From Gemmatimonadales bacterium (lineage in GTDB: Bacteria; Gemmatimonadota; Gemmatimonadetes; Gemmatimonadales; GWC2-71-9): a stretch of DNA of 64,000 nt. A model generated the notes under the pieces. The model was not told the DNA's origin. It ran no database searches and saw nothing but the letters and a program-made list of their open reading frames with translations. A program made the translations under genes and the position numbers. Shown in pieces: positions 9,391 to 28,294 of the stretch; the first letter of the stretch is position 1, and each line of letters opens with the position of its first letter. Location of the stretch: positions 4,003 through 68,002 of the forward strand of contig DATBJH010000125.1 in assembly GCA_036556505.1 (NCBI GenBank). The letters are read 5' to 3'.

Positions 9391-10671
9391 ATGCAGCGCA
9401 AGCTCCGTTGGTCCTGGCTGGGCGCCGTGGCGCTGGCTGCCGGCCCCACCCTCGCCACCGCCCAGGATCCCAGCGCCCAGGACACTCTACCGCGGGGCAC
9501 CGCGGCGCAGGACTCGGTCGCGCCGGTCGTGGTCGCGCCGGTCGTCATTCCGATGGCGGCCCCGCGCGATACCGGCACCCAGAGCCACACCGTCCGCGAA
9601 GGCGATACGCTCTGGGACCTGGCGCGCACCTACAAGGGCGATCCGTTCCTCTGGCCCGACATCTACCGGCTGAACACCAGCGTGGTGGAGGATCCGCACT
9701 GGATCTACCCGGGTGAGGTGCTGCTGCTCTCCGGCACCGCTGCCGTGGCTGCGGTTCCGGCCGAGGATACGCCGCCGCCTCCCGCCGCCGACAGCGCGTC
9801 GATGGTAGACCAGGCCGCGGAGTCGCCCGAGGCGGGCACCGAGGCGGATCCTGAGCCGCCGGCCAGCCTCGCCTCTCTGACCGAGGCGCCTCCGGCGTCG
9901 GATCAGCCGGCGCCGCTCTTCGGGCCCACGCCCGGACAGTCGATGAAGGAAATGATGCGCGCCTACACCGAGCAGCCGTATCGGCCGCTCCGGCGCAGCG
10001 AGTTCCACTCGTCCGGATTCCTGACCGAGGGTCAGAAGCTGCCCTACGGGACGGTTCGCGGCAGCGTCACGCCCCCGCAGATCCGGGCCACGCCGAGCAA
10101 CAGCAATGCGCTGCCCTACACCCTGGTGTCGGTTTCGGCCCCGAAGGGTGCCACCTACCAGGTGGGCGACAGCCTGTTGTCCGTCGTGGTCGGGCGAGAG
10201 GTGCGCGGCTATGGCAACGTGATCCAGCCGAGCGGCATCCTCCAGGTGGTGGACACTGCCGACGGCCAGTACGTCGCCAGCGTCGTGGCAGTCTACGGCA
10301 CGATCCGCGGCGGGCAGAGCGTGCTGCCGCTGGAGCAGTTCGGCGAGCCGGGGAAAGCCCGCGCCGTGCCGGTGAGCGACGGCGTGCGCGCCACCCTGCT
10401 CGGCGGCACCGGGCGACAGGATCTCAAGGCGCCGCAGATGGTGATCTTCCTCGACAAGGGCCGTCAGGCGGGTGTTGCCCCGGGCGACCTGTTCGAGATC
10501 CGTCGCCAGCCCGAGCGGCTCGACGACGGCACCGTGCGGGTGGACGACGTCATGGCCACCTTGCAGGTGGTGCACGTCCGCGATCACACCGCCACCGCGC
10601 GGGTGCTGAACGTCATATCGCCCGACATCCCGACGGGCACCGAAGCGAGGCAGGTGGCGAAGCTGCCGTAA
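9391..10671 (+). CDS. Secreted LysM protein, TsaP-like (type IV pilus secretin-associated) architecture
   Basis: Signal peptide (ATA-Q), LysM HTVREGDTLWDLA...LWPDIY...PHWIYPGE, Pro/Ala linker, C-terminal FLDKGRQAGVAPGDLFEI domain. Confidence 0.75.
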   Translation: MQRKLRWSWLGAVALAAGPTLATAQDPSAQDTLPRGTAAQDSVAPVVVAPVVIPMAAPRDTGTQSHTVREGDTLWDLARTYKGDPFLWPDIYRLNTSVVEDPHWIYPGEVLLLSGTAAVAAVPAEDTPPPPAADSASMVDQAAESPEAGTEADPEPPASLASLTEAPPASDQPAPLFGPTPGQSMKEMMRAYTEQPYRPLRRSEFHSSGFLTEGQKLPYGTVRGSVTPPQIRATPSNSNALPYTLVSVSAPKGATYQVGDSLLSVVVGREVRGYGNVIQPSGILQVVDTADGQYVASVVAVYGTIRGGQSVLPLEQFGEPGKARAVPVSDGVRATLLGGTGRQDLKAPQMVIFLDKGRQAGVAPGDLFEIRRQPERLDDGTVRVDDVMATLQVVHVRDHTATARVLNVISPDIPTGTEARQVAKLP

Positions 10672-10690
10672 CACCGGGACGCCACTTGAT

Positions 10691-10730
10691 GTGCAGCGGG
10701 GCGGGGGCTTCGGCCTCCGCCCCGCTGCAC
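10691..10730 (+). terminator. Strong stem-loop with cUUCGg tetraloop after the LysM gene
   Basis: GTGCAGCGGGGCGGGGGC-TTCG-GCCTCCGCCCCGCTGCAC, 18-bp stem (one G-U pair); no U-tract. Confidence 0.65.
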
Positions 10731-10895
10731 GTCATGGAATAGGCGTCTGTTTCCTGGTCACCCGGGCCCACACCCTTACGCGGAACCCGAAGCCGCGCCC
10801 TACCGTCCGACCGCTACACCTCTCTACATTGCGGGCGGTTTCGCAGCCTCCCCCGAGCACATGGATTCTGGAGCGCACACGATGAGACGCAGCGA

Positions 10896-11846
10896 ATGAG
10901 CGGCCGAGTTCTGGTCACCGGCGGCGCAGGCTTCATCGGCTCCCACATCGCGGAAGCCTACCTGGCCGCCGGTTGGGAGGTCGTCGTCCTCGACGATCTC
11001 TCCCGCGGCCACCAACGCAACGTCCCGTCCGGTGCCCGGTTGGTCCGGGCCGACATCCGCTCTCCGGAGGCCCGCAAGCTGCTCGCAGAGGATGGCTTCA
11101 CGGTGCTGAATCACCACGCGGCCCAGATCGACGTCCGGGTCTCGGTGGACGAGCCGGCGCTCGACGCGTCGATCAACGTGGTCGGTCTGGCGAACCTGCT
11201 CGAGGGAGCGGGCGCCGGTGGGGTGAAGCGGGTCGTGTTCGCGAGCAGCGGCGGAGTGGTCTACGGGGATCCCGAGGTGGTTCCCACACCGGAGACGGCC
11301 CCCAAGGCCCCGATCTCTCCCTATGGCGTCAGCAAGCTCTCCGGGGAGTACTATCTCCGCGCGCTCGCGGCCCTGCGCGGCTTCGAGGCGGTGGCCATGC
11401 GCTACGCCAACGTGTTCGGTCCGCGGCAGGACCCGAAGTCCGAGGCCGGAGTGGTCTCGATCTTCGTCTCCCGGCTGCTGGAGCAGCGGCCGCTCACGGT
11501 GTTCGGCAACGGGCTCCAGACCCGGGACTACATCTTCGTGCGCGATGTCGCGCGGGCGAACGTGCTGGCCAGCACCGCTCCGGTTCCCGCGGGCACCACT
11601 ATCGACGACACCGCCTTCAACATCGCGACCGCCAAACAGACCAACGTGCTCGAGCTGGCGGAGCTGGTGGGGAAGGTGATGGGGCAGAAGCCGACGATCG
11701 AGATGGCCCCCGCGAGGCCGGGCGAGCTGTTCCGCAGCTCACTCGACATCGCCAAGGCCGGGAGGGTCCTGGGCTGGAAGCCGCAGAGCGGGTTCGACGA
11801 CGGGCTTCCCCAACTGGTGGACTGGTTCCGGAAGGAGGGACGGTGA
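10896..11846 (+). CDS. NAD-dependent nucleotide-sugar epimerase/dehydratase (UDP-glucose 4-epimerase-like)
   Basis: TGGAGFIGSH, SPYGVSK (YxxxK), RYANVFGPRQ, TRDYIFV. Confidence 0.9.
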   Translation: MSGRVLVTGGAGFIGSHIAEAYLAAGWEVVVLDDLSRGHQRNVPSGARLVRADIRSPEARKLLAEDGFTVLNHHAAQIDVRVSVDEPALDASINVVGLANLLEGAGAGGVKRVVFASSGGVVYGDPEVVPTPETAPKAPISPYGVSKLSGEYYLRALAALRGFEAVAMRYANVFGPRQDPKSEAGVVSIFVSRLLEQRPLTVFGNGLQTRDYIFVRDVARANVLASTAPVPAGTTIDDTAFNIATAKQTNVLELAELVGKVMGQKPTIEMAPARPGELFRSSLDIAKAGRVLGWKPQSGFDDGLPQLVDWFRKEGR

Positions 11847-12556
11847 TCCTTCAGGCCGGGGGCGCCGTCCCCCGCACCCCGATCGAGCTGGTGCTCACCG
11901 CCAGCCTCGAGACCAAGATCGTCCTGATCATCACGATGATCTTTTCCCTGGTCTCCTGGTTCATCATCATTCTCAAGTGGTGGCAGTTCCGCCGGCTCAA
12001 CCGCCAGGCGGACCGCTTCTTCGCCGAGATGGAGCGGACGACGCGGCTGCAGGACGCGTATCACGCGGTGATGAAGCAGCCGCCGTCGCCGTACAACCGG
12101 CTCTTCCGCGAGGCGATCACCTTCTACTCCGAGCTGCGCCCGGGCGCGCTGCGGGAGGAGCGCGGCGCCGACCGGAGCTCGCTCTCCATGACCCAGCTCG
12201 AGGCGCTCAAGATGGTGCTGGGGAAGGAGGTCGCGGCCGAGCGGGACCTGTTGGGGCACTATATCCCCTGGCTGGCGACCATCGGCTCGGTGAGCCCGCT
12301 ACTCGGCCTGCTGGGCACCACCATCGGTATCATCAACGCCTTCACCGGCATCGCCACCAAGGGGTCGGGCAACCTCGCGGCAGTCGCGCCCGGCGTCGCG
12401 GAGGCGCTGGTGGCCACCTTCGCCGGCCTGGCCGCCGCTATTCCGGCGGTGATCGCCTACAACCTGTACGTCAATCGGGTGCGACTCTTCGCCGGCGAGC
12501 TCGAGGGTTTCGCCAACGAGCTGGTGGGCACGATGGCCCGGGAAGGACTGGTCTAG
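11843..12556 (+). CDS. tolQ: TolQ (MotA/TolQ/ExbB family)
   Basis: LATIGSVSPLLGLLGT, VAPGVAEALVAT..GL..AIPAVIAYN; operon position. Confidence 0.9.
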   Translation: MILQAGGAVPRTPIELVLTASLETKIVLIITMIFSLVSWFIIILKWWQFRRLNRQADRFFAEMERTTRLQDAYHAVMKQPPSPYNRLFREAITFYSELRPGALREERGADRSSLSMTQLEALKMVLGKEVAAERDLLGHYIPWLATIGSVSPLLGLLGTTIGIINAFTGIATKGSGNLAAVAPGVAEALVATFAGLAAAIPAVIAYNLYVNRVRLFAGELEGFANELVGTMAREGLV

Positions 12557-12988
12557 ATGGCGTCGGGTCTCGGCGGCGGTCTCGGCAGTCAGCGCGGCGA
12601 GCTGCCCCTCATGGCAGACGTCAACGTCACCTCGCTGGTGGACGTGATGCTGGTGCTCCTCATCGTCTTCATGATCACGGCACCGATGATGCAGGGTGGG
12701 GTGGACGTCGAGCTTCCCAGGGCGGAAGCGCGGCCGCTGTCCCCCAAGGAAGGCATGGTGGTGTCCGTGAATCGGGACGGCCGCATCTTCGTGGATCAGA
12801 CCCCCGTGTCCTATCGCGACTTCCGGGTCACCTTCAAGTCCCTGGTCGCCACCCGGAAGCCCAGCGGCGTGTACCTCCAGGCCGACACCCGGGTACCGTA
12901 CGGCGAAGTCGTGCGGGTCCTGGCGATCATCCGGGCTGCCGGTGTGGCGAACGTGGGTCTTGTCGCGCAGGAGGAAGAGGCGTCGTGA
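12557..12988 (+). CDS. tolR: TolR (ExbD/TolR family)
   Basis: NVTSLVDVMLVLLIVFMITAP, VDVELP, AD..VPYG. Confidence 0.9.
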   Translation: MASGLGGGLGSQRGELPLMADVNVTSLVDVMLVLLIVFMITAPMMQGGVDVELPRAEARPLSPKEGMVVSVNRDGRIFVDQTPVSYRDFRVTFKSLVATRKPSGVYLQADTRVPYGEVVRVLAIIRAAGVANVGLVAQEEEAS

Positions 12989-13683
12989 AGCTGCGGGCGC
13001 CGGATCGGGGAGATCCGCGCGGCAAGCTGGCCGGCTGGATCGGCACCGTGGTGGTGCACGCGGGCGCGGCGCTGTTCCTGGTCAGCCAGGTGCGCACCTC
13101 CACCGCCACGCCGCCGGTGTACGCCGTGAACCTGGTGGCGGCGCCGGCACCCACCGAGCGGCGGCGGATCGCGCGCGAAGCGATTCCCACGCCGCCGCAG
13201 GAGAAACCGGCGCCGGTGAAGCCGAGCCCCAAGCCGCCGCCGAAGGCGCCGCCCAAGCCGGCGCCCAAGCCTCCGGCCCCGACCCCGCCGGATCGGGAGG
13301 CCCCGGCGCCGACGCAGGCCCCGGTCACTCCGGCCGAAGGGGAGACCCCCAGCACCGGCACCGATGTGGTCACCATCAAGACGCCGGGACTCGAGTTCCC
13401 CTATCCCGAGTACCTGCGGAACATCGTGAACCAGATCTACACCCGGTGGGACCGCGAAGAAGCTCGGGGCAACCGGTTCGCCGAGATCAGCTTCCTGATC
13501 CGGCGGGACGGCTCGGTGCACGACATCCGGTTCGTCACTCGCTCGGGGAGCTTCGCCTTCGACCTCAGCGCCCAGGGCGCGATCGAGGCTGCGGGCAACT
13601 CTTTCGCGTTCGGGCAGCTGCCCGACGGCTGGGACGCCGACGTGCTCCCGGTGAGCTTCTACTTCAAGCCCGCGGATCAATGA
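12985..13683 (+). CDS. tolA: TolA/TonB-like energy transducer
   Basis: N-terminal TM with His, Pro/Lys-rich linker, TonB_2-like C-terminus (FLIRRDG...SGSFAFDLSA); lies between tolR and tolB. Confidence 0.8.
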   Translation: MKLRAPDRGDPRGKLAGWIGTVVVHAGAALFLVSQVRTSTATPPVYAVNLVAAPAPTERRRIAREAIPTPPQEKPAPVKPSPKPPPKAPPKPAPKPPAPTPPDREAPAPTQAPVTPAEGETPSTGTDVVTIKTPGLEFPYPEYLRNIVNQIYTRWDREEARGNRFAEISFLIRRDGSVHDIRFVTRSGSFAFDLSAQGAIEAAGNSFAFGQLPDGWDADVLPVSFYFKPADQ

Positions 13684-15002
13684 GACGACTGCCCCTCATC
13701 CTACTGCCCGTTCTTGCCGCCGCACCGCTGGCCGCACAGGACACCACCGTCACCAAGGACCAGCCCGTCCGCATCGGTGTCGACTACGCCGTGAACCGTC
13801 CGGGTCTGGTAGTGCTCCCGGGTGCCGGACTCGACTCGGTGCGCGCCATCGTCCGGCGGGACCTGGACTACACCGACCGGTTCGAGATGCTGGGGGACTT
13901 CGCCTCCACCGACCCGGGGAGCTCGGCGAGCCCGGGCTCATCGGTGAACTACGGGATCTACAAGACGATGGGCGCCCAGCTCGGGGTCGAGCTCAACGCC
14001 GCTCCCGGTGGGGTCACCGCCCGGCTGCACGACATCAACGGCCAGAAGGTGCGGAACACCCAGTCATTCACCCTGCCGGCCGAGACCGACGCGGAGTACC
14101 GGATGGAGGTGCACCGGGTCTCGGACGAGATCGCCCGGTGGGCCAGCGGCACCGCGGGCATGGCCGCGACCCGCTTTCTCTTCGTCTCCAACGGCCGGGT
14201 GTTCCGGATCGACAGCGACGGCGAGGAGGCGGTGGCGCTCACGCCGGAGGGCATGACGGCGCTCTCGCCGGTGTGGTCGCCCGACGGACGCACCATCGCC
14301 TACACCCGGCTCGAGGGCGGGCGCGGCGGCGTGATCGTGCAGTCGCTGGCCGGCGGCGGCTCCCAGGTGGCGCCGGGAGCGCAGAGCGGGCTCAACATCA
14401 CGCCCGCCTTCTCGCCCGACGGCCGGACGCTCGCGTTCGCGCGCTCCGACGAGAGCGGCACCGACATTTTCACCGCGAACTATGTCGATCGCTGCTGCGC
14501 GCAACGCTTGACCGTGGGACGCTTCGCTGACAACTTGTCACCAACCTTTTCCCCCGACGGCCGACGCATCGCGTTCGTATCCACGCGCTCGGGCCCGCCC
14601 CAGATCTATGTGATGGCCGCGAACGGCACCGACCAGGAGTTGCTGGCGCCGTTCGATTACGGCGCGACCGGCGCCTCCAACGCGCCCGAGTGGTCGCCCG
14701 ACGGAGCGAGGGTCGTCTTCCACCGCGACGTCCGCAATGTCACGCTGGCCCCCCAGATCTTTCTGGTGGACGTCGCGGGGCGTCGCGTCACCCAGCTCAC
14801 CTCGTCGGGCCGCAACGAGGACCCGACGTGGGGCCCCGACGGCCGCCACATTGCGTTCATCTCGGATCGCACCGGACGGCGGCAGATCTGGATCATCGAC
14901 ACCGAAACCGGCCGGGTACGGCAGCTCCAGACGCCAGGAGCGGCCCGGCTTCCCGCGTGGTCCCGGCGCCTCGGCCGGGCCACGGTCGCCTCGAACCCAT
15001 GA
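13680..15002 (+). CDS. tolB: TolB beta-propeller protein
   Basis: Signal peptide, repeated PxW/FSPDG (PD40) motifs. Confidence 0.92.
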   Translation: MRRLPLILLPVLAAAPLAAQDTTVTKDQPVRIGVDYAVNRPGLVVLPGAGLDSVRAIVRRDLDYTDRFEMLGDFASTDPGSSASPGSSVNYGIYKTMGAQLGVELNAAPGGVTARLHDINGQKVRNTQSFTLPAETDAEYRMEVHRVSDEIARWASGTAGMAATRFLFVSNGRVFRIDSDGEEAVALTPEGMTALSPVWSPDGRTIAYTRLEGGRGGVIVQSLAGGGSQVAPGAQSGLNITPAFSPDGRTLAFARSDESGTDIFTANYVDRCCAQRLTVGRFADNLSPTFSPDGRRIAFVSTRSGPPQIYVMAANGTDQELLAPFDYGATGASNAPEWSPDGARVVFHRDVRNVTLAPQIFLVDVAGRRVTQLTSSGRNEDPTWGPDGRHIAFISDRTGRRQIWIIDTETGRVRQLQTPGAARLPAWSRRLGRATVASNP

Positions 15003-15012
15003 ACCCGGAGTG

Positions 15013-15585
15013 ATGATGCGCGCTTCTTCCCTGATGCTCCTGGCTTCCTTCGCGCTGGCCGCCTGCGGCGGCGGCAACCCGCCCGAAGAGCCGGCCCCCG
15101 AGCCCGCTCCCGCCCCCGCCCCGCCGCCGGCTCCCGCGCCCGTGGACGACAGCGCCGAGCGGGAGCGTCTCGAGCGCGAGCGGATGGAGCGCGAGGCGGC
15201 CGAGCGCGCCCGGGCGCTGGCCGCGGAGCTGGGCACGATGATCAACTTCGAGTTCGACAAGGCCGACATCCGCTCCGCCGATCAGGGAACCCTGGACCGC
15301 AAGGCCGCCATCCTCGCCGCCAACACCAACGTGCGGATCCGCATCGCGGGTCACGCGGACGATCGCGGATCCGACGAGTACAACCTCGCGCTCGGTAACC
15401 GGCGCGCGGCGGCGGCCAAGCGCTATCTCGAGAGCAAGGGCGTGGACGGCTCCCGGGTCGAGGTGGTGTCGTACGGGGAGGAGCGTCCGCTCAACCCCGG
15501 CTCCGACGAGGCGGCCTACGCCCAGAACCGGCGCGACGAGTTCGAGGTGACCGCCGGCGGTGACAACCTCGTCGCACCCCAGTGA
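15013..15585 (+). CDS. pal: Peptidoglycan-associated lipoprotein Pal
   Basis: LAAC lipobox, FEFDKA, GHADDRGSDEYNLALGNRRA, NRR. Confidence 0.95.
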   Translation: MMRASSLMLLASFALAACGGGNPPEEPAPEPAPAPAPPPAPAPVDDSAERERLERERMEREAAERARALAAELGTMINFEFDKADIRSADQGTLDRKAAILAANTNVRIRIAGHADDRGSDEYNLALGNRRAAAAKRYLESKGVDGSRVEVVSYGEERPLNPGSDEAAYAQNRRDEFEVTAGGDNLVAPQ

Positions 15586-16382
15586 GACCGCGTCTCGGTC
15601 GTCTGACGGGCATCCTCGCCCCCGCGCTGGTCGCGGGGGCGGGACTCGGGGGGTGTGGCGCCTCGAAGAACGACGTGCAGATGGTGCAGGGCGAAGTGGT
15701 GCTGCTGAAGGCGGAGATGGCCCGGCGCGACTCGGCCCGCGCAGCCCAGCTCGATCAGGTCATCCAGGTGCAGCGGCAGATCATGGACTCACTCAACGCG
15801 ACCCGGCGCTCGGTGGCGCAGGTCCGAGGCGACCTTTCCAGCGATCTGTACAACATCCAGCAGCAGCTGGTGCAGCTGCAGGAGCTCACCGGCCAGAGCC
15901 AGCAACGGCTGACCGAGCTCCGCACCCGGCTGGAAGCGCGCGGCGCGCAGATGGAGGCCTCGCCGGTGCCGGGGGACAGCGCGCGACCCACGGGCCAAGG
16001 CGGTGCCGCGTCGGCGGATCAGATGTACGAGGCGTCGCTGGCGCAGCTCCGGCGCGGCAGTCTCTCCACCGCCCGACTGGGGCTGCGCGAGATGCTCCGG
16101 CAGTATCCCACCAGCGAGCGGGCGCCCGACGCGCTCTACTTCATCGGCCAGAGCTTCGCGTCGGAGAACCCCGACTCGGCGGCCGCCTACTACCGCGAGG
16201 TGGTGGACAAGTATCCCACGTCGCCTCGGGCCGCGGCCGCGCTCTACAACCTCGGCCTCCTGGCCGAGCGGCGGAAGGACATGGCGGGCGCGCGAGACGC
16301 GTACCAGCGGGTAACCCAGAAGTACCCGCAGTCCGACGAGGCCGCTCTGGCCCGCGACCGACTGAAGGCGCTCGGGCGCTGA
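15582..16382 (+). CDS. cpoB: CpoB/YbgF tol-pal TPR protein (lipoprotein-like)
   Basis: Coiled coil plus TPRs (YPTSERAPDALY); directly follows pal. Confidence 0.85.
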   Translation: MRPRLGRLTGILAPALVAGAGLGGCGASKNDVQMVQGEVVLLKAEMARRDSARAAQLDQVIQVQRQIMDSLNATRRSVAQVRGDLSSDLYNIQQQLVQLQELTGQSQQRLTELRTRLEARGAQMEASPVPGDSARPTGQGGAASADQMYEASLAQLRRGSLSTARLGLREMLRQYPTSERAPDALYFIGQSFASENPDSAAAYYREVVDKYPTSPRAAAALYNLGLLAERRKDMAGARDAYQRVTQKYPQSDEAALARDRLKALGR

Positions 16383-16404
16383 GCCCGGGCGCCCGCCCAC
16401 CCCC

Positions 16405-19400
16405 ATGACCGGTTCCGCGGGGGAGATGCCGTTCCTCGATCACCTCGAGGAACTGCGCCTGCGCATCCTGCGGTCGCTGGCCGCCGTGGTGGTGGGCTTC
16501 GCCGTGGGGCTCTGGGCGGTGGAGCGGTTCCAGCTGGTCAACGTCCTCAAGGCCCCGATCGCCAAGTATCTCCCCGCCGGCAAGCTGATCGTCACCAGCC
16601 CGACCGAGCCCCTGATGATCGTGCTCAAGCTCGGGTTCGTGGTCGGGCTGGTGCTCGCCTCCCCGATCATCCTCTGGCAGCTGTGGGCCTTCCTCGCCCC
16701 CGCGCTCTACGAGCGGGAGAAGAAGGCGCTGGTACCCTCGCTCTTCATCGGGCTGTTCCTGTTCCTCACCGGCGCCACCCTGGCGTACCTGCTCGTGGTA
16801 CCGCAGGCGCTCCGGGTGCTGTTCAGCTTCCAGAGCGAGGCCATCGCGCCCTTCATCACCTACGACGCCTGGTTCGGCTTCGTGCTCCAGGTCGTGCTGG
16901 CGCTGGGGATCTCGTTCGAGCTGCCGCTGGTGATGGTGATTCTCTCCTGGCTGGGGGTGATCGGACCCGGGGAGCTGCACCGGTTCCGGCGCTACGCCAT
17001 CGTGGGCTCGTTCCTCGCCGGGGCCGTCCTTTCGCCGGGGGCCGACCTGCTCTCGATGATCATGATGACGGTGCCGCTGCTCTTCCTGTATGAGGTGGGT
17101 GTGGCCGGCTCCGCGCTGGTGCATCGGCGCCGGCGGAAGGAGGCGGCGATGGCGGCGCTGGCACTGTTCGCGCTGGGTCTGAGCGCGACGCCGGCCCCGG
17201 CCCAGGAGCCGGTCCGCCCCGGCCGGCCGACCGCGGACTCGCTCCGCGCCGCCGAGGCCGGCCTCGAGGACGAGGGCGACCTGGAGGGCCGCCCGGGTCA
17301 GTCACTCGACAGCGCCACGGCCAGACGGCTCGGACTGCCCACCTCGCCGTCCCGCAGCTTCGCCCAGCCCGACTCGGTGGTGAACGCGCTGATGAACCGG
17401 CGGGGCTACCGGCCCACGCGCTATCGCGCCGACTCGGCGACGGTGTTCGTAGAGCGGCAGGAGGTGCAGCTCCAGGGCGAGGCTCTCACCGAGCGCCAGG
17501 GCGCGCTGCTGGAGGCCGACTCGATCACCTACCGCCGCAACAGCTGCCTGCTCGCGGCCTCCGGCGACCCGCACCTGTTCGACCAGGGGCAGGTGCTGGT
17601 GGGGGAGGGGATCAGCTATGACGTCTGCCGCCGGCGCGGAATGATCCGGGACGCCCTCACCAACTTCAACGAGGGCTCCACCGTCTGGTTCCTGCGGGGG
17701 AACGTGGCGCAGGACTCCAGCTCCAGCCGGATCTACGCCGGATCGAGCGACATCACCAGCTGCGACCTGCCGTCCCCCCACTATCACTTCTCCTCCCGGC
17801 AGATGAAGTGGATCTCCCGCTCGGTGATGGTGGCGCGGCCGGTGACACTCTACGTGCGGGACGTCCCCGTGCTCTGGCTGCCCTTCATCTTCCAGGACAT
17901 GCGGCCGGGACGGCACTCCGGCATCCTGATTCCCCAGTTCGGCATCAACGACCTGGTGCGTCCCACCCCCGGCTACAACCGCCAGGTGGCGAACCTGGGC
18001 TACTACTGGGCGCCGAACGACTACCTGGATTTCACCGCCCGGCTGGACTGGTTCGCCAACCGCTACGTGCAGTACGGCGTCACCGGCCAGTACCGGTTGC
18101 TCAACCGGTTCCTGGCGGGCACCCTGGGGTTCAACGAACAGCGGGAATCCGACGGAGGATCGGGATTCGCGGTGCGGTGGGATCACCGACAGCAGTTCAA
18201 CCTCTCCACCAGCCTGAACGTCGACTTCAACTACGCCAGCAACACGAACGTGGTGCGGGACAACGCCATCGATCCGCTGCAGAACACGCAGCAGATCACC
18301 AGCTCGGTCAACTTCTCCAAGCGCTACGGCTGGGGAACGGTGACCCTGGGTGGCAACCGCCGCCAGGACATCAACGACGGCGGCGTGCAGCAGCTGTTGC
18401 CGGCGGTGACGGTCTCTCCCGCGCCGCTCGCGGTGGCCTCCGACATCACCTGGTCGCCGGGGCTGAGCTTCACCAACAACACGACCTCCAACCCGGACGC
18501 GGACTCGCTCTTTCAGGTGCTGCCCGGCGGAGTCATCGACACCATCCCGCTGGACGAGGATCAGCGGGTCACCGCGCTCAACTTCGACACCCCGCTCCGG
18601 ATCGGGTCGTTCAACTGGCAGAACTCGATCCAGGCGACCGACCAGACCAGCACGGGCCTGGAGACGGAGACGCTCCGGATCGACGACCCGGCGAGCGACG
18701 ATCCGGCCGACTCGATCACCGTGCGCCGCACGTTCTCCAGCGATTTCGAGAGCACGCTGGACTGGAACACCGGGATCAACCTGCCGATTCTCTTTCGCGG
18801 GTCGTGGAAGCTTCAGCCCTCGCTCGGCATCTCCAACACGACGAGCGGGGCGTTCATGGTGCGCAACCGGAACACCAACGGCGACTGGGTCCACCAGGGC
18901 AAGCGGTTCCGCATCGGAGTGAGCTCCGCCCCCACGCTCTTCGGGTTCTACCCCGGGATCGGGCCGCTCCAGCGGATCCGGCACAGTTTCTCTCCGGTCA
19001 TCACCTACAGCTACGAGCCTTCGGCCGACGTCCCCGAGGAGTACGCGCGCGCCATCGCCCAGCCGGGACAGATCCCTCAGCTTCGCAGCCTGGCCCGACA
19101 GGCGCTCACGGTCGGGCTCTCGCAGACGTTCGAGGGGAAGCGGAAGCCGGAGGGTCTGGACACCAGCTCGGCGAACGCTCCGAAGCTCCGGCTGCTGAGC
19201 ATCAGCACCAGCCCGATGACCTACGACTTCGAGCAGGCGAAGCAGCCGGGCCGGACCGGCTGGGCCACGCAGTCGCTGACCAATACCTTCCTCAGCGACA
19301 TGCTGCCGGGATTCAGTCTTACCCTGAGCCACGATCTCTGGCGTGGCGTGGTGGGGCAGGACAGCTCCGACTTCGATCCCTTCCTGCAGCGGGTGGACGC

Positions 19401-19911
19401 GAGCTTCTCCGTCTCCGGAAACACCTTTCGCAGCCTCGGGGCCCTCTTCGGACTGGGGAAACCGCCGGATCAGGCCGCACGGGAACGGGACCAGGAGATT
19501 CCGCGGTACGTCGCCGAGTCGGGCCGGCGCACCCGTCCCGGCTCGTTCTACAGCACCAACCAGGCCCCCATCCGCGGGGGCGGGCGCGCGTTCTCCGCCA
19601 GCTTCCAATACTCGCTCACTCGCGACCGACCGATTCCGGACCGAGTCCAGCAAGACGACCAGAACCTGAACATCACCGCCAATTTCTCGCCCACGCCGTT
19701 CTGGGGGCTGACCTGGTCCACCCAGTACAGCATCACCGAAGGCAGCTTCGAGTCGCAGGTCCTCCGCCTGGAGCGCGATCTGCATGAGTGGCGCGCGGGC
19801 TTCAACTTCGTGCGCAATCCGAACGGGACCTTCGCGATCTATTTCTCGATCTACCTGACCGATCTGCCGGACCTGAAGTTCGACTACGATCAGACGACCT
19901 TCGAGGAATAG
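16405..19911 (+). CDS. tatC: TatC-LptD fusion: TatC (aa 1 to ~245), internal signal peptide, LPS-assembly protein LptD-like
   Basis: EMPFLDHLEELR, WAFLAPALYERE, FELP, LYE TatC motifs; then RRRRK-EAAMAALALFALGLS-ATPAPA/QE; LptD-type ITSCDLPSPHYHF, PVLWLPF, SGILIP, GYYWAPNDY, RDLHEW; no stop codon between the parts. Confidence 0.88.
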   Translation: MTGSAGEMPFLDHLEELRLRILRSLAAVVVGFAVGLWAVERFQLVNVLKAPIAKYLPAGKLIVTSPTEPLMIVLKLGFVVGLVLASPIILWQLWAFLAPALYEREKKALVPSLFIGLFLFLTGATLAYLLVVPQALRVLFSFQSEAIAPFITYDAWFGFVLQVVLALGISFELPLVMVILSWLGVIGPGELHRFRRYAIVGSFLAGAVLSPGADLLSMIMMTVPLLFLYEVGVAGSALVHRRRRKEAAMAALALFALGLSATPAPAQEPVRPGRPTADSLRAAEAGLEDEGDLEGRPGQSLDSATARRLGLPTSPSRSFAQPDSVVNALMNRRGYRPTRYRADSATVFVERQEVQLQGEALTERQGALLEADSITYRRNSCLLAASGDPHLFDQGQVLVGEGISYDVCRRRGMIRDALTNFNEGSTVWFLRGNVAQDSSSSRIYAGSSDITSCDLPSPHYHFSSRQMKWISRSVMVARPVTLYVRDVPVLWLPFIFQDMRPGRHSGILIPQFGINDLVRPTPGYNRQVANLGYYWAPNDYLDFTARLDWFANRYVQYGVTGQYRLLNRFLAGTLGFNEQRESDGGSGFAVRWDHRQQFNLSTSLNVDFNYASNTNVVRDNAIDPLQNTQQITSSVNFSKRYGWGTVTLGGNRRQDINDGGVQQLLPAVTVSPAPLAVASDITWSPGLSFTNNTTSNPDADSLFQVLPGGVIDTIPLDEDQRVTALNFDTPLRIGSFNWQNSIQATDQTSTGLETETLRIDDPASDDPADSITVRRTFSSDFESTLDWNTGINLPILFRGSWKLQPSLGISNTTSGAFMVRNRNTNGDWVHQGKRFRIGVSSAPTLFGFYPGIGPLQRIRHSFSPVITYSYEPSADVPEEYARAIAQPGQIPQLRSLARQALTVGLSQTFEGKRKPEGLDTSSANAPKLRLLSISTSPMTYDFEQAKQPGRTGWATQSLTNTFLSDMLPGFSLTLSHDLWRGVVGQDSSDFDPFLQRVDASFSVSGNTFRSLGALFGLGKPPDQAARERDQEIPRYVAESGRRTRPGSFYSTNQAPIRGGGRAFSASFQYSLTRDRPIPDRVQQDDQNLNITANFSPTPFWGLTWSTQYSITEGSFESQVLRLERDLHEWRAGFNFVRNPNGTFAIYFSIYLTDLPDLKFDYDQTTFEE

Positions 19912-19931
19912 GGTGTCCTATTGGGGGGACA

Positions 19932-20055
19932 GGCGGTCGGGCGGTCAGCCGGTCAGGCGGTCGACTGCTCCTGACGCCCGAAGGCTCGCCCCAGCTTGTC
20001 TACGATCAGGTCGACTGACCACCCGACCGGCTGACCGCCCGACCGCCCGACCGCC
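19932..20055. repeat. Inverted octamer tandem arrays (GGCGGTCR)x4 ... (YGACCGCC)x5 around a 52-nt spacer
   Basis: Read directly: 19932-19963 and 20016-20055 are mutually complementary degenerate arrays. Confidence 0.9.
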
Positions 20056-20070
20056 TGGCACATCTTCTGC
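20056..20070 (+). promoter_or_regulatory. Putative sigma54 promoter for lipoprotein-hutH
   Basis: TGGCACA-TCTT-CTGC, GG-N10-GC spacing, 33 nt upstream of ATG20104. Confidence 0.55.
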
Positions 20071-20103
20071 CATCTCTCCACGCATCCCTCACGGAGCCAA
20101 GTC

Positions 20104-20970
20104 ATGCGCCATTGGTGGATCCCAGCGCTGGTCCTGCTCGCGGCCTGCGGCGACGACGATGATGGCCCCGCCGGACCCGGTATCACCCCCGAGGCGCCGG
20201 CCACCCTGTCGAGCACCTCGCTCGATGGCGCCATCGCCCTGGTCTGGTCCGACAACCCGTTTCAGAACGATCCCGATATCTTCGCCAACTACCGCGTGTA
20301 CAGCGCGTCCTTCAACATCGACACCGGAGACTGCGGGGACGACTTCGCGCTGGAGGGCACCACGGTAGCCCCCGAGTTTCTGGCTGCCGCGCTGGCCAAC
20401 GGCGTGCCCCGCTGCTTCACGGTGACGGCGATGAGCGTGGACGGGCTGGAGAGTCCCCAATCGCCCCTGCGCGGCGATACGCCGCGGTTCGATTCGCGGA
20501 ACATCGCGCTCGCGGCGGCCCCGGTGACCGCGAACAACTCCGGTTTCCGCTTCTGGGACGACCTCAACAGCAACGGCTCGGTGGAGCTCGACGAGCTGGG
20601 CCTGGTGCGCAATGCCGGCTCGCCGGACATTGATTTCTTCGTGGATCGCGACGGCAACGGCGACCTCTTCCTGACCCCGGTGCGGGAGGGGACCGGCGTC
20701 GAGTACTACGACGAAGTGGACCCGGTCCAGGACCTCACCAGCATCGACTTCGCCCCCGACTTCAGCGGCTCGGGCGGGTATCGCACCTCCGCGATTCAGG
20801 CACTGCCGGGATTCGGCTACGTGTTCGAGATGGACGGCGGTGACGGCTTCCCCCGCTACGGCGCCGTGCGGGTGCAGCACGTAGGCACTACCTTCCTGAT
20901 CCTCGACTGGGCGTACCAGCCCGATCCCGGGAATCCCGAGCTGCTCGTGAGGCCGCCATCGCCCAAATGA
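20104..20970 (+). CDS. Hypothetical acidic lipoprotein
   Basis: LAAC lipobox, Asp-rich, DxNxNG motif (DLNSNGSVELDE). Confidence 0.8.
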   Translation: MRHWWIPALVLLAACGDDDDGPAGPGITPEAPATLSSTSLDGAIALVWSDNPFQNDPDIFANYRVYSASFNIDTGDCGDDFALEGTTVAPEFLAAALANGVPRCFTVTAMSVDGLESPQSPLRGDTPRFDSRNIALAAAPVTANNSGFRFWDDLNSNGSVELDELGLVRNAGSPDIDFFVDRDGNGDLFLTPVREGTGVEYYDEVDPVQDLTSIDFAPDFSGSGGYRTSAIQALPGFGYVFEMDGGDGFPRYGAVRVQHVGTTFLILDWAYQPDPGNPELLVRPPSPK

Positions 20971-22493
20971 CGCCCGCGCCGGTCACGCTCGACGGCCGCT
21001 CACTCGCGATCGGCGAGGTGGTCCGCATCGCCCGCGAGCCGGAGGCCCGGGCCCGAATCGATCCGACGGCTCGCGACGCCCTGGTCGCGAGCCGTCGTCT
21101 CGTCGAGCAGGCCATCGCCTCGGGGCAGACGATCTACGGCATCAACACCGGATTCGGCAAGCTCGCCAACGTCCGCATTCCGCCCGACAGCCTGGACGCA
21201 CTCCAGGTCAACCTGATCCGGAGCCACGCCGCCGGGGTCGGCGGGCCGCTGCCCGCCGGTGTGGTCCGCGCGGTGATGCTGCTCCGGGCCAACGTCCTCC
21301 TGCGGCCCACCAGCGGCGTGCGGCCGGAGCTGGTCGAGGCGCTGGTGGCGATGCTCGAGACGGGGATCGTCCCGGTGGTTCCGGAGCAGGGCAGCGTGGG
21401 CGCAAGCGGGGACCTCGCGCCGCTGAGCCACATCGCGCTCGCGCTCATGGGTGAGGGCGACGTGCTCGGTCCGAGCGGCCCCGAGCCGGCGGCGGGCGCG
21501 TTGCGGCGCGCTGGCCTCCAGCCCTTCCGCTTCGCGCCCAAGGAGGGGCTGGCCTTCATCAACGGCACCCAGGCGCAGACCGCGCTGCTCGCGCTCCTGG
21601 TGCACGATGCCGAGGTGCTGTGGCGGACGGCGGTGGGGGCGGCGGCAATGAGCCTGGAGGCGCTGCGGGGCACGCCCGCTCCTCTCGACCCGAGAATCCA
21701 CGAGGCCCGGCCGCACCGCGGACAGCTCGAGGCCGCCGAGCTGATGCGCGGCCTCCTGGCCGACAGCGAGATCCGCGAGTCGCACCGGGAGAACGATCCC
21801 CGGGTGCAGGACGCCTACTCGCTCCGCTGCGCCCCCCAGGTGCTCGGCGCCGTGGCGGATGCGATCCGCTTTGCCCGGGAGACGGTGACGGTGGAGCTCA
21901 ACGCCTCGACCGACAACCCGCTGGTCTTTCCCGAGGGCGACGTGATCTCCGGCGGGAATTTCCACGGGCAGCCGGTGGCGCAGGCGCTCGACTTCCTCGC
22001 CACCGCCCTGACGACGCTTCAGGCCATCGCCGAGCGGCGGGTGGAGCGGCTGGTGAATCCCGATCTGTCCCAGGGGCTCCCCGCCTTTCTCACGGCGGAT
22101 CCCGGTCTCTCCTCCGGCTTCATGATGGTCCAGATCTCCGCCGCCTCGCTGGTGGCAGAGTCACGCGCGCTGGCGATGCCGGCCAGCATCGGCTCGATCC
22201 CCACCGACGCCAACCAGGAGGACTTCGTCCCCATGGGGATGGCGGCGGCGTGGAAGGCGCAGCGGATCCTGGCCAACGCCCAGCGGGTGGTCGCCGCGGA
22301 ACTGCTGTGCGCGGCCCAGGGGCTGGAGTTTCTCCGGCCGCTCCGACCGGGCCGTGGGGTCGACATGCTGCACCAGCGGCTCCGCGCCCTGGCGCCGCCG
22401 GTGTTGCCGCTGGAGGCCGACCGGCCGCCCGCCCCGGACCTGGAGCGCCTGGCGCTCGCGATTGTCGCGGGGGAGCTCGATCCGGGCGCCTGA
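20967..22493 (+). CDS. hutH: Histidine ammonia-lyase
   Basis: YGINTGFG, NLIRSHAAGVG, MIO motif GSVGASGDLAPL, QDAYSLRC, SGGNFHG, NQED. Confidence 0.95.
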   Translation: MTPAPVTLDGRSLAIGEVVRIAREPEARARIDPTARDALVASRRLVEQAIASGQTIYGINTGFGKLANVRIPPDSLDALQVNLIRSHAAGVGGPLPAGVVRAVMLLRANVLLRPTSGVRPELVEALVAMLETGIVPVVPEQGSVGASGDLAPLSHIALALMGEGDVLGPSGPEPAAGALRRAGLQPFRFAPKEGLAFINGTQAQTALLALLVHDAEVLWRTAVGAAAMSLEALRGTPAPLDPRIHEARPHRGQLEAAELMRGLLADSEIRESHRENDPRVQDAYSLRCAPQVLGAVADAIRFARETVTVELNASTDNPLVFPEGDVISGGNFHGQPVAQALDFLATALTTLQAIAERRVERLVNPDLSQGLPAFLTADPGLSSGFMMVQISAASLVAESRALAMPASIGSIPTDANQEDFVPMGMAAAWKAQRILANAQRVVAAELLCAAQGLEFLRPLRPGRGVDMLHQRLRALAPPVLPLEADRPPAPDLERLALAIVAGELDPGA

Positions 22494-26063: not shown

Positions 26064-26315
26064 GTGGGCAACCTCGGCTTCACCGAGATCCTGGTCATCG
26101 TGCTAGTGGTCCTGCTGCTGTTCGGCGCCAAGCGGCTGCCGGAGGTGGGCGCGTCGATCGGGAAGGGTATCCGTGAGTTCAAGCGGAGCCTTTCCGACAC
26201 CCAGGAGGCGATCATGGGGAACGAAGAGTCTCGTCCGCTGCCGCCCCGCCAGCCGGAAGACCCGGTCCAGGGGACCAAGTCCTCCGGCGAGCCGAAGCGG
26301 CTCTCACAGCAGTAG
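26064..26315 (+). CDS. tatA: Twin-arginine translocase TatA/TatE
   Basis: EILVIVLVVLLLFGAKRLPEVGASIGKGIREFK. Confidence 0.96.
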   Translation: MGNLGFTEILVIVLVVLLLFGAKRLPEVGASIGKGIREFKRSLSDTQEAIMGNEESRPLPPRQPEDPVQGTKSSGEPKRLSQQ

Positions 26316-26325
26316 CGCCGGTCAA

Positions 26326-26341
26326 TGACCCCGCGGGGTCA
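26326..26341. terminator. Perfect 16-bp palindrome between convergent genes
   Basis: TGACCCCGCGGGGTCA; includes the stop codon of the minus-strand gene. Confidence 0.5.
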
Positions 26342-28168
26342 GGTGACCGGCGGCTGCCGGGTCTCCGCGGCCTCCTCCTGCTGCTGGCGGAGCTTGGCCC
26401 GGTTGTCCACGATCTTGGCGGACTGCCGGAGCGCGGCCATGTAGCCGCGGACCCGCGCCTGGCGGGCGAGGTCGATCATCTTGGTGCGGTACTCGTCCAG
26501 CTCCTTCACGAACTTCGCTGAATCCGCGGGCACCTTCTCCAGCGACTCCATCACGTACAGCCCGTCGGGCGTGTCCAGCAGGCCGCTGCGCTGACCCTTC
26601 TCCAGACCGAACGCGGTGCCCACCACCATGGGATCGGTGAGCGGCGGGTTTACCCGGGTGAACGGACCGAACTCCCGGTGCGGCAGATTCATCGCCTTGG
26701 CCGCCTCGGCCATGGACTCGCCCTTCTCCAGCCGCTTCATGTACTCCTCGGCCTTGGGCTTGGCGAGCGCCTTCTTCTTGTCGCTGCGGAGCGCGTACTC
26801 CACCGCCGGGCGGACCTGGGCCAGGGGCGGCACTCCCGCCGCCTGCATGCTGTCGAGGCGGAAGATGTAGAAGGCGAACGAGGTCTCGATCACCGGGCTG
26901 GTGGCCCCCGGCTTGGAACCGCCGAAAGCCCAGGCGCCGGCGTCGGGGACCACCAGGTTGCCGACCTGCACCCGGGTCCCCTCCTGAACACCGCCGGTCC
27001 GCCCGATGGGGAGCGAAAGCGCCTTCGAGACCGTGTCCAATGCGGCGGGGTCGCCCCGCTCGGCGCCGAGACGCTCCAGCGAGTCGGCTTCGGCGTCGAG
27101 GTGGTCCCGGTGCTCGCCGGCGACCTCGATCGGGATCAGGATGTGACGGCCCTTGGCCTTGTTCCCCTTGCGGCTGGTGATCTCGATGATGTGGAACCCG
27201 AACTGGGAGAGCACCGGCTCCGACACCTTCTTGAGGGGCATGGCGAATGCGGCCGAGTCGAAGGCCGGGTCCATGCTGCCCTTGGTCCACTCGCCCAGGT
27301 CACCGCCCGCCGCGGCCGAGACGCTGTCGGAGGACTCGCGCCGCGCAACGTCGGCGAACGGCTCGCCACCCAGGACCGCGGCGCGCGCCGAATCGGCCCG
27401 GGCCTTCGCGAACGCCGTATCGGACGCGTTGGTGAGCCGGGGCAGGGCCACGAAGCTGAGGAACGCGGTTCGCGCCCGCTTGAAGTCGTCCTGGTGCGCG
27501 CGGTAGTACGCCGTGACCTCCTGGTCGGTCAGCTTGACGCTGGAGTCGGGGACGGCGTTGCGCGGGATGATGGCGGTGAGCCCGACCTTGACCTGCTCGT
27601 GCTCGTCCCGGTACTGCTCCCAGAGCGCGGCGTCGGACAGGTAGATGTCGGCCGCCACCACCCGGAGGAGCTTGGAGCGGCGCAGCTGGTCGCGGTACTG
27701 CGCTTCCAGGGCCGGCAGGTACTGCGCTCCCACGCTGGAGGTGAGCCAGCGCTGATACTTGTTGATGTCGAACTGGCTGTCGGTCTGGAACTCGGGCACG
27801 TCGCGGAAATCCGCCGGAGGTGAGTTGCGGATCGCCTGGACCACCTCGTCCGTGGTGACGGTGATGTTCCGCCGCGCGAACTCGGTCTCCAGCACCCGGT
27901 TCTCGATCAGCTGCTCCCAGACCTGGTCCTCGATCTGGTTGCGCTCCTCCAGCGTGAGAGAGGCGGGCATGTCGCGCTGGCGACTGTCGATGCTCTGCTG
28001 CACGAAGCCCTGGTAGGTTCGGGCGTCGATGCTCTCGCCATTGATCTTGCCGACGTTCGTGCTCCTGCCCAGACCGGACCAGTCCACGCTGGTCAGGACA
28101 AAGCCCAGCATGAGTAGAACGAAGACTGCGCCCGCCACCTTCGCGCTATTGCGGAATGCTTGCATCAT
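26339..28168 (-). CDS. PpiD/SurA-type periplasmic chaperone (SurA_N + parvulin)
   Basis: MMQAFRNSAK plus TM anchor, GGDLGEW, FDSAAF, PVLSQFGFHII, RHILI. Confidence 0.88.
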   Translation of the reverse strand: MMQAFRNSAKVAGAVFVLLMLGFVLTSVDWSGLGRSTNVGKINGESIDARTYQGFVQQSIDSRQRDMPASLTLEERNQIEDQVWEQLIENRVLETEFARRNITVTTDEVVQAIRNSPPADFRDVPEFQTDSQFDINKYQRWLTSSVGAQYLPALEAQYRDQLRRSKLLRVVAADIYLSDAALWEQYRDEHEQVKVGLTAIIPRNAVPDSSVKLTDQEVTAYYRAHQDDFKRARTAFLSFVALPRLTNASDTAFAKARADSARAAVLGGEPFADVARRESSDSVSAAAGGDLGEWTKGSMDPAFDSAAFAMPLKKVSEPVLSQFGFHIIEITSRKGNKAKGRHILIPIEVAGEHRDHLDAEADSLERLGAERGDPAALDTVSKALSLPIGRTGGVQEGTRVQVGNLVVPDAGAWAFGGSKPGATSPVIETSFAFYIFRLDSMQAAGVPPLAQVRPAVEYALRSDKKKALAKPKAEEYMKRLEKGESMAEAAKAMNLPHREFGPFTRVNPPLTDPMVVGTAFGLEKGQRSGLLDTPDGLYVMESLEKVPADSAKFVKELDEYRTKMIDLARQARVRGYMAALRQSAKIVDNRAKLRQQQEEAAETRQPPVT

Positions 28169-28264
28169 AGGAGGTTGCTCGTGGCTCCGGACCGGTGTGG
28201 GAACAAGGGCGTGAAGTCTAAGTCCTGGAGCACCGAACCTCAAGGCGCTACGGGGCTTACCCAG

Positions 28265-28294
28265 TTGACAGCGGGGGGGTCGGCTCGCTACTGT
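28265..28294 (+). promoter_or_regulatory. Sigma70-type promoter for the TPR-aroQ operon
   Basis: TTGACA-18 nt-TACTGT. Confidence 0.65.

Follow-up and report, generated by a model that had tools for sequence, protein, structure and literature searches.

The FbcH protein of Bradyrhizobium japonicum is reportedly encoded by one gene as a precursor of cytochromes b and c1, in which a polytopic inner-membrane protein is followed by an internal signal and by a second protein released by cleavage. Here, we describe a frame of this kind with other partners in a Gemmatimonadales bacterium (assembly GCA_036556505.1, designated as G000, 87.6% complete). In the window, by which we mean the whole analyzed stretch of 64,000 nucleotides of contig DATBJH010000125.1, one stop-free frame of 1168 codons on the plus strand encodes TatC, of the twin-arginine translocation (Tat) system, and then the outer membrane lipopolysaccharide (LPS) insertase LptD. 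As is reported for FbcH, one frame holds two proteins that are separate elsewhere, with a signal-like joint between them, and the processing of TatC-LptD is predicted from its sequence. FbcH, however, joins two subunits of one inner-membrane complex, whereas TatC-LptD joins unrelated machines of two membranes, and its fusion recurs and reverts. We consider it highly probable that the product is an FbcH-type precursor with new partners, which would be cleaved to release LptD. No published description of a TatC-LptD fusion was found in a literature search, most subscription papers and supplements being outside its coverage.

Two other groups of proteins share part of this layout. In viral polyproteins cut by the signal peptidase of the endoplasmic reticulum, an internal signal behind a membrane segment frees the downstream protein; these are eukaryotic or viral, whereas TatC-LptD is encoded by a bacterial chromosomal housekeeping gene. 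The dual Sec-Tat proteins (actinobacterial Rieske protein and Sco3746; PMC5449189) likewise have an even number of membrane segments, behind which come a basic motif, a last segment and the exported domain. TatC-LptD is unlike these in that it lacks an RR-x-F-L-type motif, its last segment is strongly hydrophobic and followed by a predicted cleavage site, and its passenger is a beta-barrel instead of a cofactor domain. In E. coli, a signal peptidase I site engineered behind the third membrane segment of a polytopic protein was used to release a periplasmic reporter (PMC5449189), the construct being Tat-exported.

Both halves of the frame were identified by profile searches. The N-terminal part matches the TatC family PF00902 over residues 12-224 (E 1.6e-61, 208 bits against a cut-off of 25.1) and TIGR00945 (203 bits against 132.7), and the C-terminal part matches LptD_2 (PF19838, E 5.3e-35, 121 bits, cut-off 22.5), while the proteobacterial LptD models of NCBIfam match it weakly, far under their cut-offs. 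The open frame and these hidden Markov model matches bear out the claim of the initial annotation that a single frame holds TatC and then LptD. The DHLEEL motif is present, and among 95 fused sequences the signal-binding residues F96 and E105 are invariant and D214 is conserved in at least 90%; we take these three to match the corresponding residues of E. coli TatC. An AlphaFold2 model built from the 95 sequences (mean predicted local distance difference test [pLDDT] 80, predicted template modeling score 0.62) comprises TatC as a helical domain, about 50 residues of low confidence (247-300, pLDDT below 50), among which the seventh helix is not confidently placed, a beta domain (338-498) and a barrel (527-1165). 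In a Foldseek search with this model, the top 16 matches were LptD-type chains (two with uninformative titles), followed by TatC. The best match, 8h1s (E 5.7e-27), extends over approximately 950 columns with a root-mean-square deviation of about 10-12 Å and a target TM-score (TMt) of 0.5-0.6; because the deviation is about 11 Å, the likeness to LptD is one of fold and not of detail. The N-terminal part matches the TatC structures 4b4a and 4hts with a TMt of 0.79, and profile matches of the LptD half comprise 7omm, 8h1r and LptA.

The tatC-lptD fusion is real and not an artefact of assembly. Among the best 120 database matches, 119 carry both Pfam domains, and their NCBI names point to Gemmatimonadales. 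We surveyed a draw of 200 genomes of the host family (f1) together with G000, including the unpublished genomes G227, G238, G108, G174 and G054. By hand count, frames of at least 1000 aa hold 127 of the 150 TatC matches listed, out of 196 in the draw. All 60 long-frame loci that were examined are fused, and 16 of the 23 short-frame loci were examined as well: nine hold separate adjacent genes, four are truncated fusions (a contig end accounts for three, and a stop within lptD for that of G223), one is an additional tatC standing alone and two continue past the end of their contig. This recurrence of long fused frames in relatives rules out an assembly error. Mapping of reads over the junction, which the initial annotation had proposed, agreed with the assembly in one run and departed from it by a base in another: an independent contig of run X7 spans 17123-17385 with no differences, a range that includes the predicted cut site and stops short of the end of the sixth transmembrane segment (TM6), whereas in an X2 contig with a depth of 3.9 a single base is missing at 17201, possibly through error. 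A second X7 contig has three inserted bases in the linker that keep the frame.

The linker was compared in 87 fused loci, with two duplicates and the unpublished L009 left out, and signals were called by heuristic rules. In it, a basic run is followed by a hydrophobic core (median 9-residue Kyte-Doolittle [KD] value 3.0) and by a site of the form small-x-small/Q, where the slash marks the predicted cut. All 87 loci have this site within 18 residues of the hydrophobic region (h-region), whereas 1000 shuffles gave 15.5 loci on average and 27 at most. The residue at -1 is A in 80 loci, G in 5 and S in 2, and that at -3 is A in 39, L in 33, V in 8 and another residue in 7. A266 and Q267 are conserved in at least 90% of the 95 sequences, a level that no column from 268 to 301 reaches, and both sequence and length flanking them vary freely among fused relatives. 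The same site is found in 33 of 33 fused proteins of other orders (null mean 4.7, maximum 11), a set of 35 from which one protein without an anchor and the family-f1-like P0371 were left out. The features of a Sec and signal peptidase I substrate, namely a basic n-region, a hydrophobic h-region and small residues at -3 and -1, are accordingly present in 87 of 87 and 33 of 33 proteins. The junction letters given in the initial annotation (HRRRRK and A-P-A/Q; positions in Table 1) are correct, and its internal signal with a signal peptidase I-type site is supported by this comparison, cleavage itself being a prediction; both the fusion and small-x-small/Q are conserved, but strict A-x-A does not apply to every locus.

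The internal site is written like the ordinary signals of G000, because A-x-A/Q is the style of its N-terminal signals: by a crude heuristic, 61 of 168 A-x-A signal peptides (36%) have Q at +1, against a background of 2.9%. A precursor cut by another enzyme, such as a rhomboid, an RseP-type or a periplasmic protease, would draw on the general knowledge that such enzymes cut membrane segments; the conserved small residues at -3 and -1 and the Q at +1, which match the N-terminal signals of G000, make this hardly credible. Gln is also enriched directly after signal peptidase I sites in Bacteroidetes (the Q-rule, PMC5837995), and the frequency in G000 may reflect a similar bias in Gemmatimonadota, which are unmentioned in the available part of that paper. 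Q also begins most outgroup LptDs. A search of G000 for the glutaminyl cyclase family PF05096 gave no match over the cut-off (best E 7e-4), other cyclase types being outside this search.

Separate genes in relatives indicate where the linker came from. In other Gemmatimonadota (L025-L030, L033-L039, L126-L140, L150, L153), separate tatC and lptD (LptD_2) genes stand in the same order, with the same h-region and A/Q site, and differ in that tatC has a stop and lptD its own start, often in an (A/G)TGA overlap; the fused gene lacks both and has the Arg tail as its n-region. The site rule applied to the fused linkers is satisfied at the N-terminus of 18 of 21 separate LptDs (L030, with an indel, was excluded). 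RR already occurs in the TatC tail at 19 of 22 separate loci, and the Arg run therefore predates the fusion. By this comparison, the linker is TatC's own Arg tail, apparently recruited as an n-region, joined to the former LptD signal peptide. The proposal of the initial annotation that the Arg run is a basic n-region is supported as a prediction of its role, with the correction that the run is an ancestral TatC tail.

The Arg run might alternatively be a tethered twin-arginine signal, by which the segment is passed from Sec to Tat or docked in the signal site of TatC to regulate it until cut. An RR pair does precede the h-region in 79 of the 87 fused linkers. However, RR-x-hydrophobic-hydrophobic occurs in none of the 87 linkers, as the initial annotation had anticipated in calling the run noncanonical, and RR is also a feature of unfused TatC tails (19 of 22). 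LptD must moreover be unfolded when it arrives at the beta-barrel assembly machinery (BAM). There are dual Sec-Tat membrane proteins in which RR precedes the final segment, but PMC5449189 requires of them segments of low hydrophobicity that are basic at the C-terminal side, whereas the segment here is strongly hydrophobic (median KD 3.0) with 0 or 1 K/R in the c-region. The minimum of about eight residues before RR given there also contrasts with the fused gene, in which the basic run abuts TM6 directly. We regard a twin-arginine role as very implausible.

The chain could also remain uncut, or be cut only in part, with LptD in the outer membrane tethered by its flexible N-terminus to the seventh helix of TatC as a trans-envelope link. 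The geometry does not forbid this, because approximately 50 residues after TM6 have low model confidence (pLDDT below 50) and the N-terminal domain of LptD faces the periplasm. The statement of the initial annotation that the two proteins cannot work as one chain was in this respect too strong, since residues 247-300 could serve as a tether in principle. The evidence is nevertheless against such a link, which we judge very improbable: the residues at -1, -3 and +1 are conserved, lineages go back to having two genes, and fused proteins (median 40, range 7-57, n = 83 of 87) show no greater spacing between Q and the first conserved LptD motif than their separate counterparts (median 38, n = 11 of 21).

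At syntenic loci outside family f1, tatC and lptD are separate at 30 of 32 junctions and fused at two (G035 and G339). In the first 22 separate loci (13 outside and 9 inside f1), the lptD start, an ATG or GTG in the LptD frame, overlaps the tatC TGA in 15 and lies within -8 to +4 of the tatC stop in 21; A or G precedes TGA in 8 of 15 further loci. Such start/stop overlap is the usual mark of translational coupling, and the ancestral genes look coupled. A gain from fixing TatC and LptD synthesis at 1:1, which had been put forward in the initial annotation, is not shown by these data: the argument for it is weak, because ancestral genes already look coupled and splits recur (six in the simplest history below), which suggests that the fused and split states are nearly equivalent.

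Two proteins might likewise be made from the fused gene at translation, with LptD from an internal start or free TatC from a programmed frameshift to an early stop. G000 does have two candidate starts, an ATG in frame at 17149 that is preceded by AGGAGG and, immediately 5' of HRRRRK, a GTG at 17119 that would yield a 28-residue signal; neither is conserved. However, the ATG is Ile in a 96%-identical relative, GTG before the basic run is as frequent (60 of 106 Val codons) as in the TatC body (1076 of 1867), 22 of the 87 fused loci have no ATG, GTG or TTG in the interval, and 10 of 87 have one behind a Shine-Dalgarno match of at least four bases. The first off-frame stops scatter from 1 to more than 1000 codons. 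Even if LptD had an internal start, TatC, having no stop, would still be made fused. With no conserved signal for either event in the 87 loci, both candidates were rejected, and we give separate translation very little credence.

The history of the fusion was reconstructed with FastTree from TatC and LptD without the linker (104 rows). Split rows are nested among fused rows and eight changes are needed, for which the simplest history would start with a fusion at the base of f1, followed by six splits within that family, and add a separate fusion in G035, which has a split congener, G031. A larger tree, to which outgroups had been added, places P0198 and P0202 among other orders, and P0198 in turn leads to about 30 additional fused clusters, of which three bear the name Longimicrobiales. 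In family f4, G339 is fused and four others match only from the LptD part on, G257 having been read directly as split. Together, the trees suggest that the fusion arose at least four times and was undone about six times, although the small tree of other-order fusions could also reflect an older fusion with losses. In the linkers of G178, G035, G339, P0355 and P0361, the old TatC tail still precedes the old LptD signal, as read-through would leave them. Sister pairs that differ in state occur within genera (G178 versus G050, G125 and G220; G053 versus G127). In the split G127 (L054), a likeness to the linker of fused congeners (L089, L099) is seen by eye in the TatC tail and again in the new LptD N-terminus, as if the gene had split via linker duplication.

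We return to the precursor reading, for which established Sec biology offers a route. The six helices of TatC would be inserted co-translationally with the C-terminal end in the cytoplasm, the Arg run would hold the seventh segment N-in/C-out, and the next 902 residues would cross SecYEG unfolded. LepB would then cut after A266 on the periplasmic side, LptD, starting at Q267, would be folded by chaperones and BAM with LptE, and the remaining 266-aa TatC with one extra helix would work with the single TatA. The fusion may have originated in a frame-restoring indel near the tatC stop that joined adjacent, often overlapping genes, and would be tolerated because the LptD signal would still be cut. 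This sequence of events, from insertion by Sec to release of LptD by signal peptidase I, is the account of the locus that we hold to be very likely. Two heuristic scans of the 3254 G000 genes for internal-signal fusions each returned tatC-lptD and two others; the latter are unconvincing by eye, and tatC-lptD is the sole convincing case in G000.

Several points weigh against this reading or limit it. The 87 loci are related, and the shuffle control therefore overstates their independence; because kin are not independent, the linker counts are not probabilities. The signal rules are heuristic. A cut site might also outlast its use for a while, although the fused proteins have diverged to about 45-50% identity. 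Two RNA runs (of six rows labeled or guessed as RNA, all of small share) cover scattered parts of the fused gene and have no cover over the junction, for which reason no inference on expression is drawn. The FastTree trees carry long-branch warnings, making the counts and directions of origins and losses approximate; the larger tree leaves the two halves of family f1 and family f3 unresolved, and the split genomes were chosen on purpose, not at random.

Whether the fusion was selected is a separate question. Selection could have favored placing the 900-residue LptD on a co-translational route dependent on the signal recognition particle, with no re-initiation at a weak overlapping start, hence the at least four origins; we consider this doubtful. 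Counting against pure neutrality, the fusion persists across the family at about 45-50% identity, recurs in other orders and has no second convincing example of its kind in G000. If it was selected, how fast signal peptidase cuts would determine the supply of an active Tat core as well as of the LPS insertase.

The extra helix was also considered as a replacement for TatB. In a comparison of 64 deliberately chosen genomes, with 1 to 6 tatA/B-family copies, the seventh helix did not track loss of a tatB-like gene; a single tatA/B-family gene is common in fused and unfused genomes alike, and the idea is unsupported. Most Gemmatimonadales genomes searched have a single tatA/B-family gene, which suggests a two-component TatAC system in a diderm. 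TatA has been proposed (bioRxiv 10.1101/2025.09.16.676506) to sit by TM6 of TatC in the resting complex.

The features of the locus are collected in Table 1. The neighbors named in the initial annotation were all found: tol-pal-type genes lie directly upstream, the last of which we presume to be CpoB-like by its position, and the tatA and SurA/PpiD-type genes follow downstream. As to other copies, profile searches of the 87.6%-complete genome found no second tatC or LptD_2 match, and the classic LptD family PF04453 gave one match below the cut-off (E 0.095). G000 has lptE, lptF/G and lpxC and one signal peptidase I gene, lepB. By a heuristic, 18 of its 3254 predicted genes have Tat-type N-termini, several of them convincing. 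A scan of 10500-21000 returned no promoters and two terminators, both at chance level. An intergenic inverted repeat at 19926-20060, directly 3' of the fused gene, is a REP-like element; its arms have 246 short BLAST matches genome-wide (E up to 1e-3), some in tandem runs as on C74.

Table 1. Coordinates of the fused gene, its parts and its neighbors in the window
Feature	Position	Strand	Remarks
tatC-lptD fused gene	16405..19911	+	1168 codons; open frame and profile matches
TatC part	16405..17121	+	aa 1-239; Pfam match aa 12-224; DHLEEL, F96, E105 and D214 kept
HRRRRK, basic cytoplasmic TatC tail, predicted n-region of internal signal	17122..17139	+	H240-K245
Hydrophobic h-region, predicted seventh membrane segment	17143..17181	+	aa 247-259; corresponds to N-terminal LptD signal of unfused relatives
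c-region and predicted signal peptidase I site A264-P-A266/Q267	17182..17205	+	predicted cut between 17202 and 17203
N-terminal residues of predicted mature LptD, variable and modeled with low confidence	17203..17304	+	aa 267-300
LptD N-terminal beta domain, jellyroll-type by likeness to LptD/LptA	17416..17898	+	aa 338-498
LptD beta-barrel	17983..19899	+	aa 527-1165
Tetratricopeptide repeat (TPR) protein, last gene of tol-pal-type cluster	15582..16382	+	ends 22 bases 5' of the fused gene
tatA/B-family gene	26064..26315	+	sole one found in G000
SurA/PpiD-type gene	26339..28345	-	downstream of tatA

Some relatives show variants of the locus. G035 (L031, L032) and G208 (L052) have a fused tatC-lptD and a second stand-alone tatC, that of G035 adjoining a tatA-family match, and G066 (L045) has two fused copies. 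The stop within the lptD part of L056 (G223) and the indel near the lptD start of L030 (G032) are probably assembly errors. P0371 (1567 aa, from a cluster of four) extends TatC-LptD by about 400 residues with a lipoprotein-like signal and is either a triple fusion or the result of a lost stop. The database proteins P0124 and P0195, which link TatC to CoaE or to a PNKP ligase domain, are likely chimeras; P0124 is a single member on a 1.8-kb contig.

If cleavage occurs as predicted, TatC-LptD would be a natural chromosomal polyprotein that gives rise to core parts of two unrelated envelope machines in two membranes. Signal peptidase I would then routinely cut behind a seventh membrane helix, a beta-barrel would be exportable as the tail of a polytopic protein, and TatC would tolerate an extra helix beside TM6. 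Domain-fusion inference would wrongly predict a partnership of TatC and LptD from such proteins, and because databases name them "TatC" alone, the LptD of a large soil lineage goes unseen. Sister pairs of the same genus, one fused and the other split, provide ready tests of gene fusion and fission.

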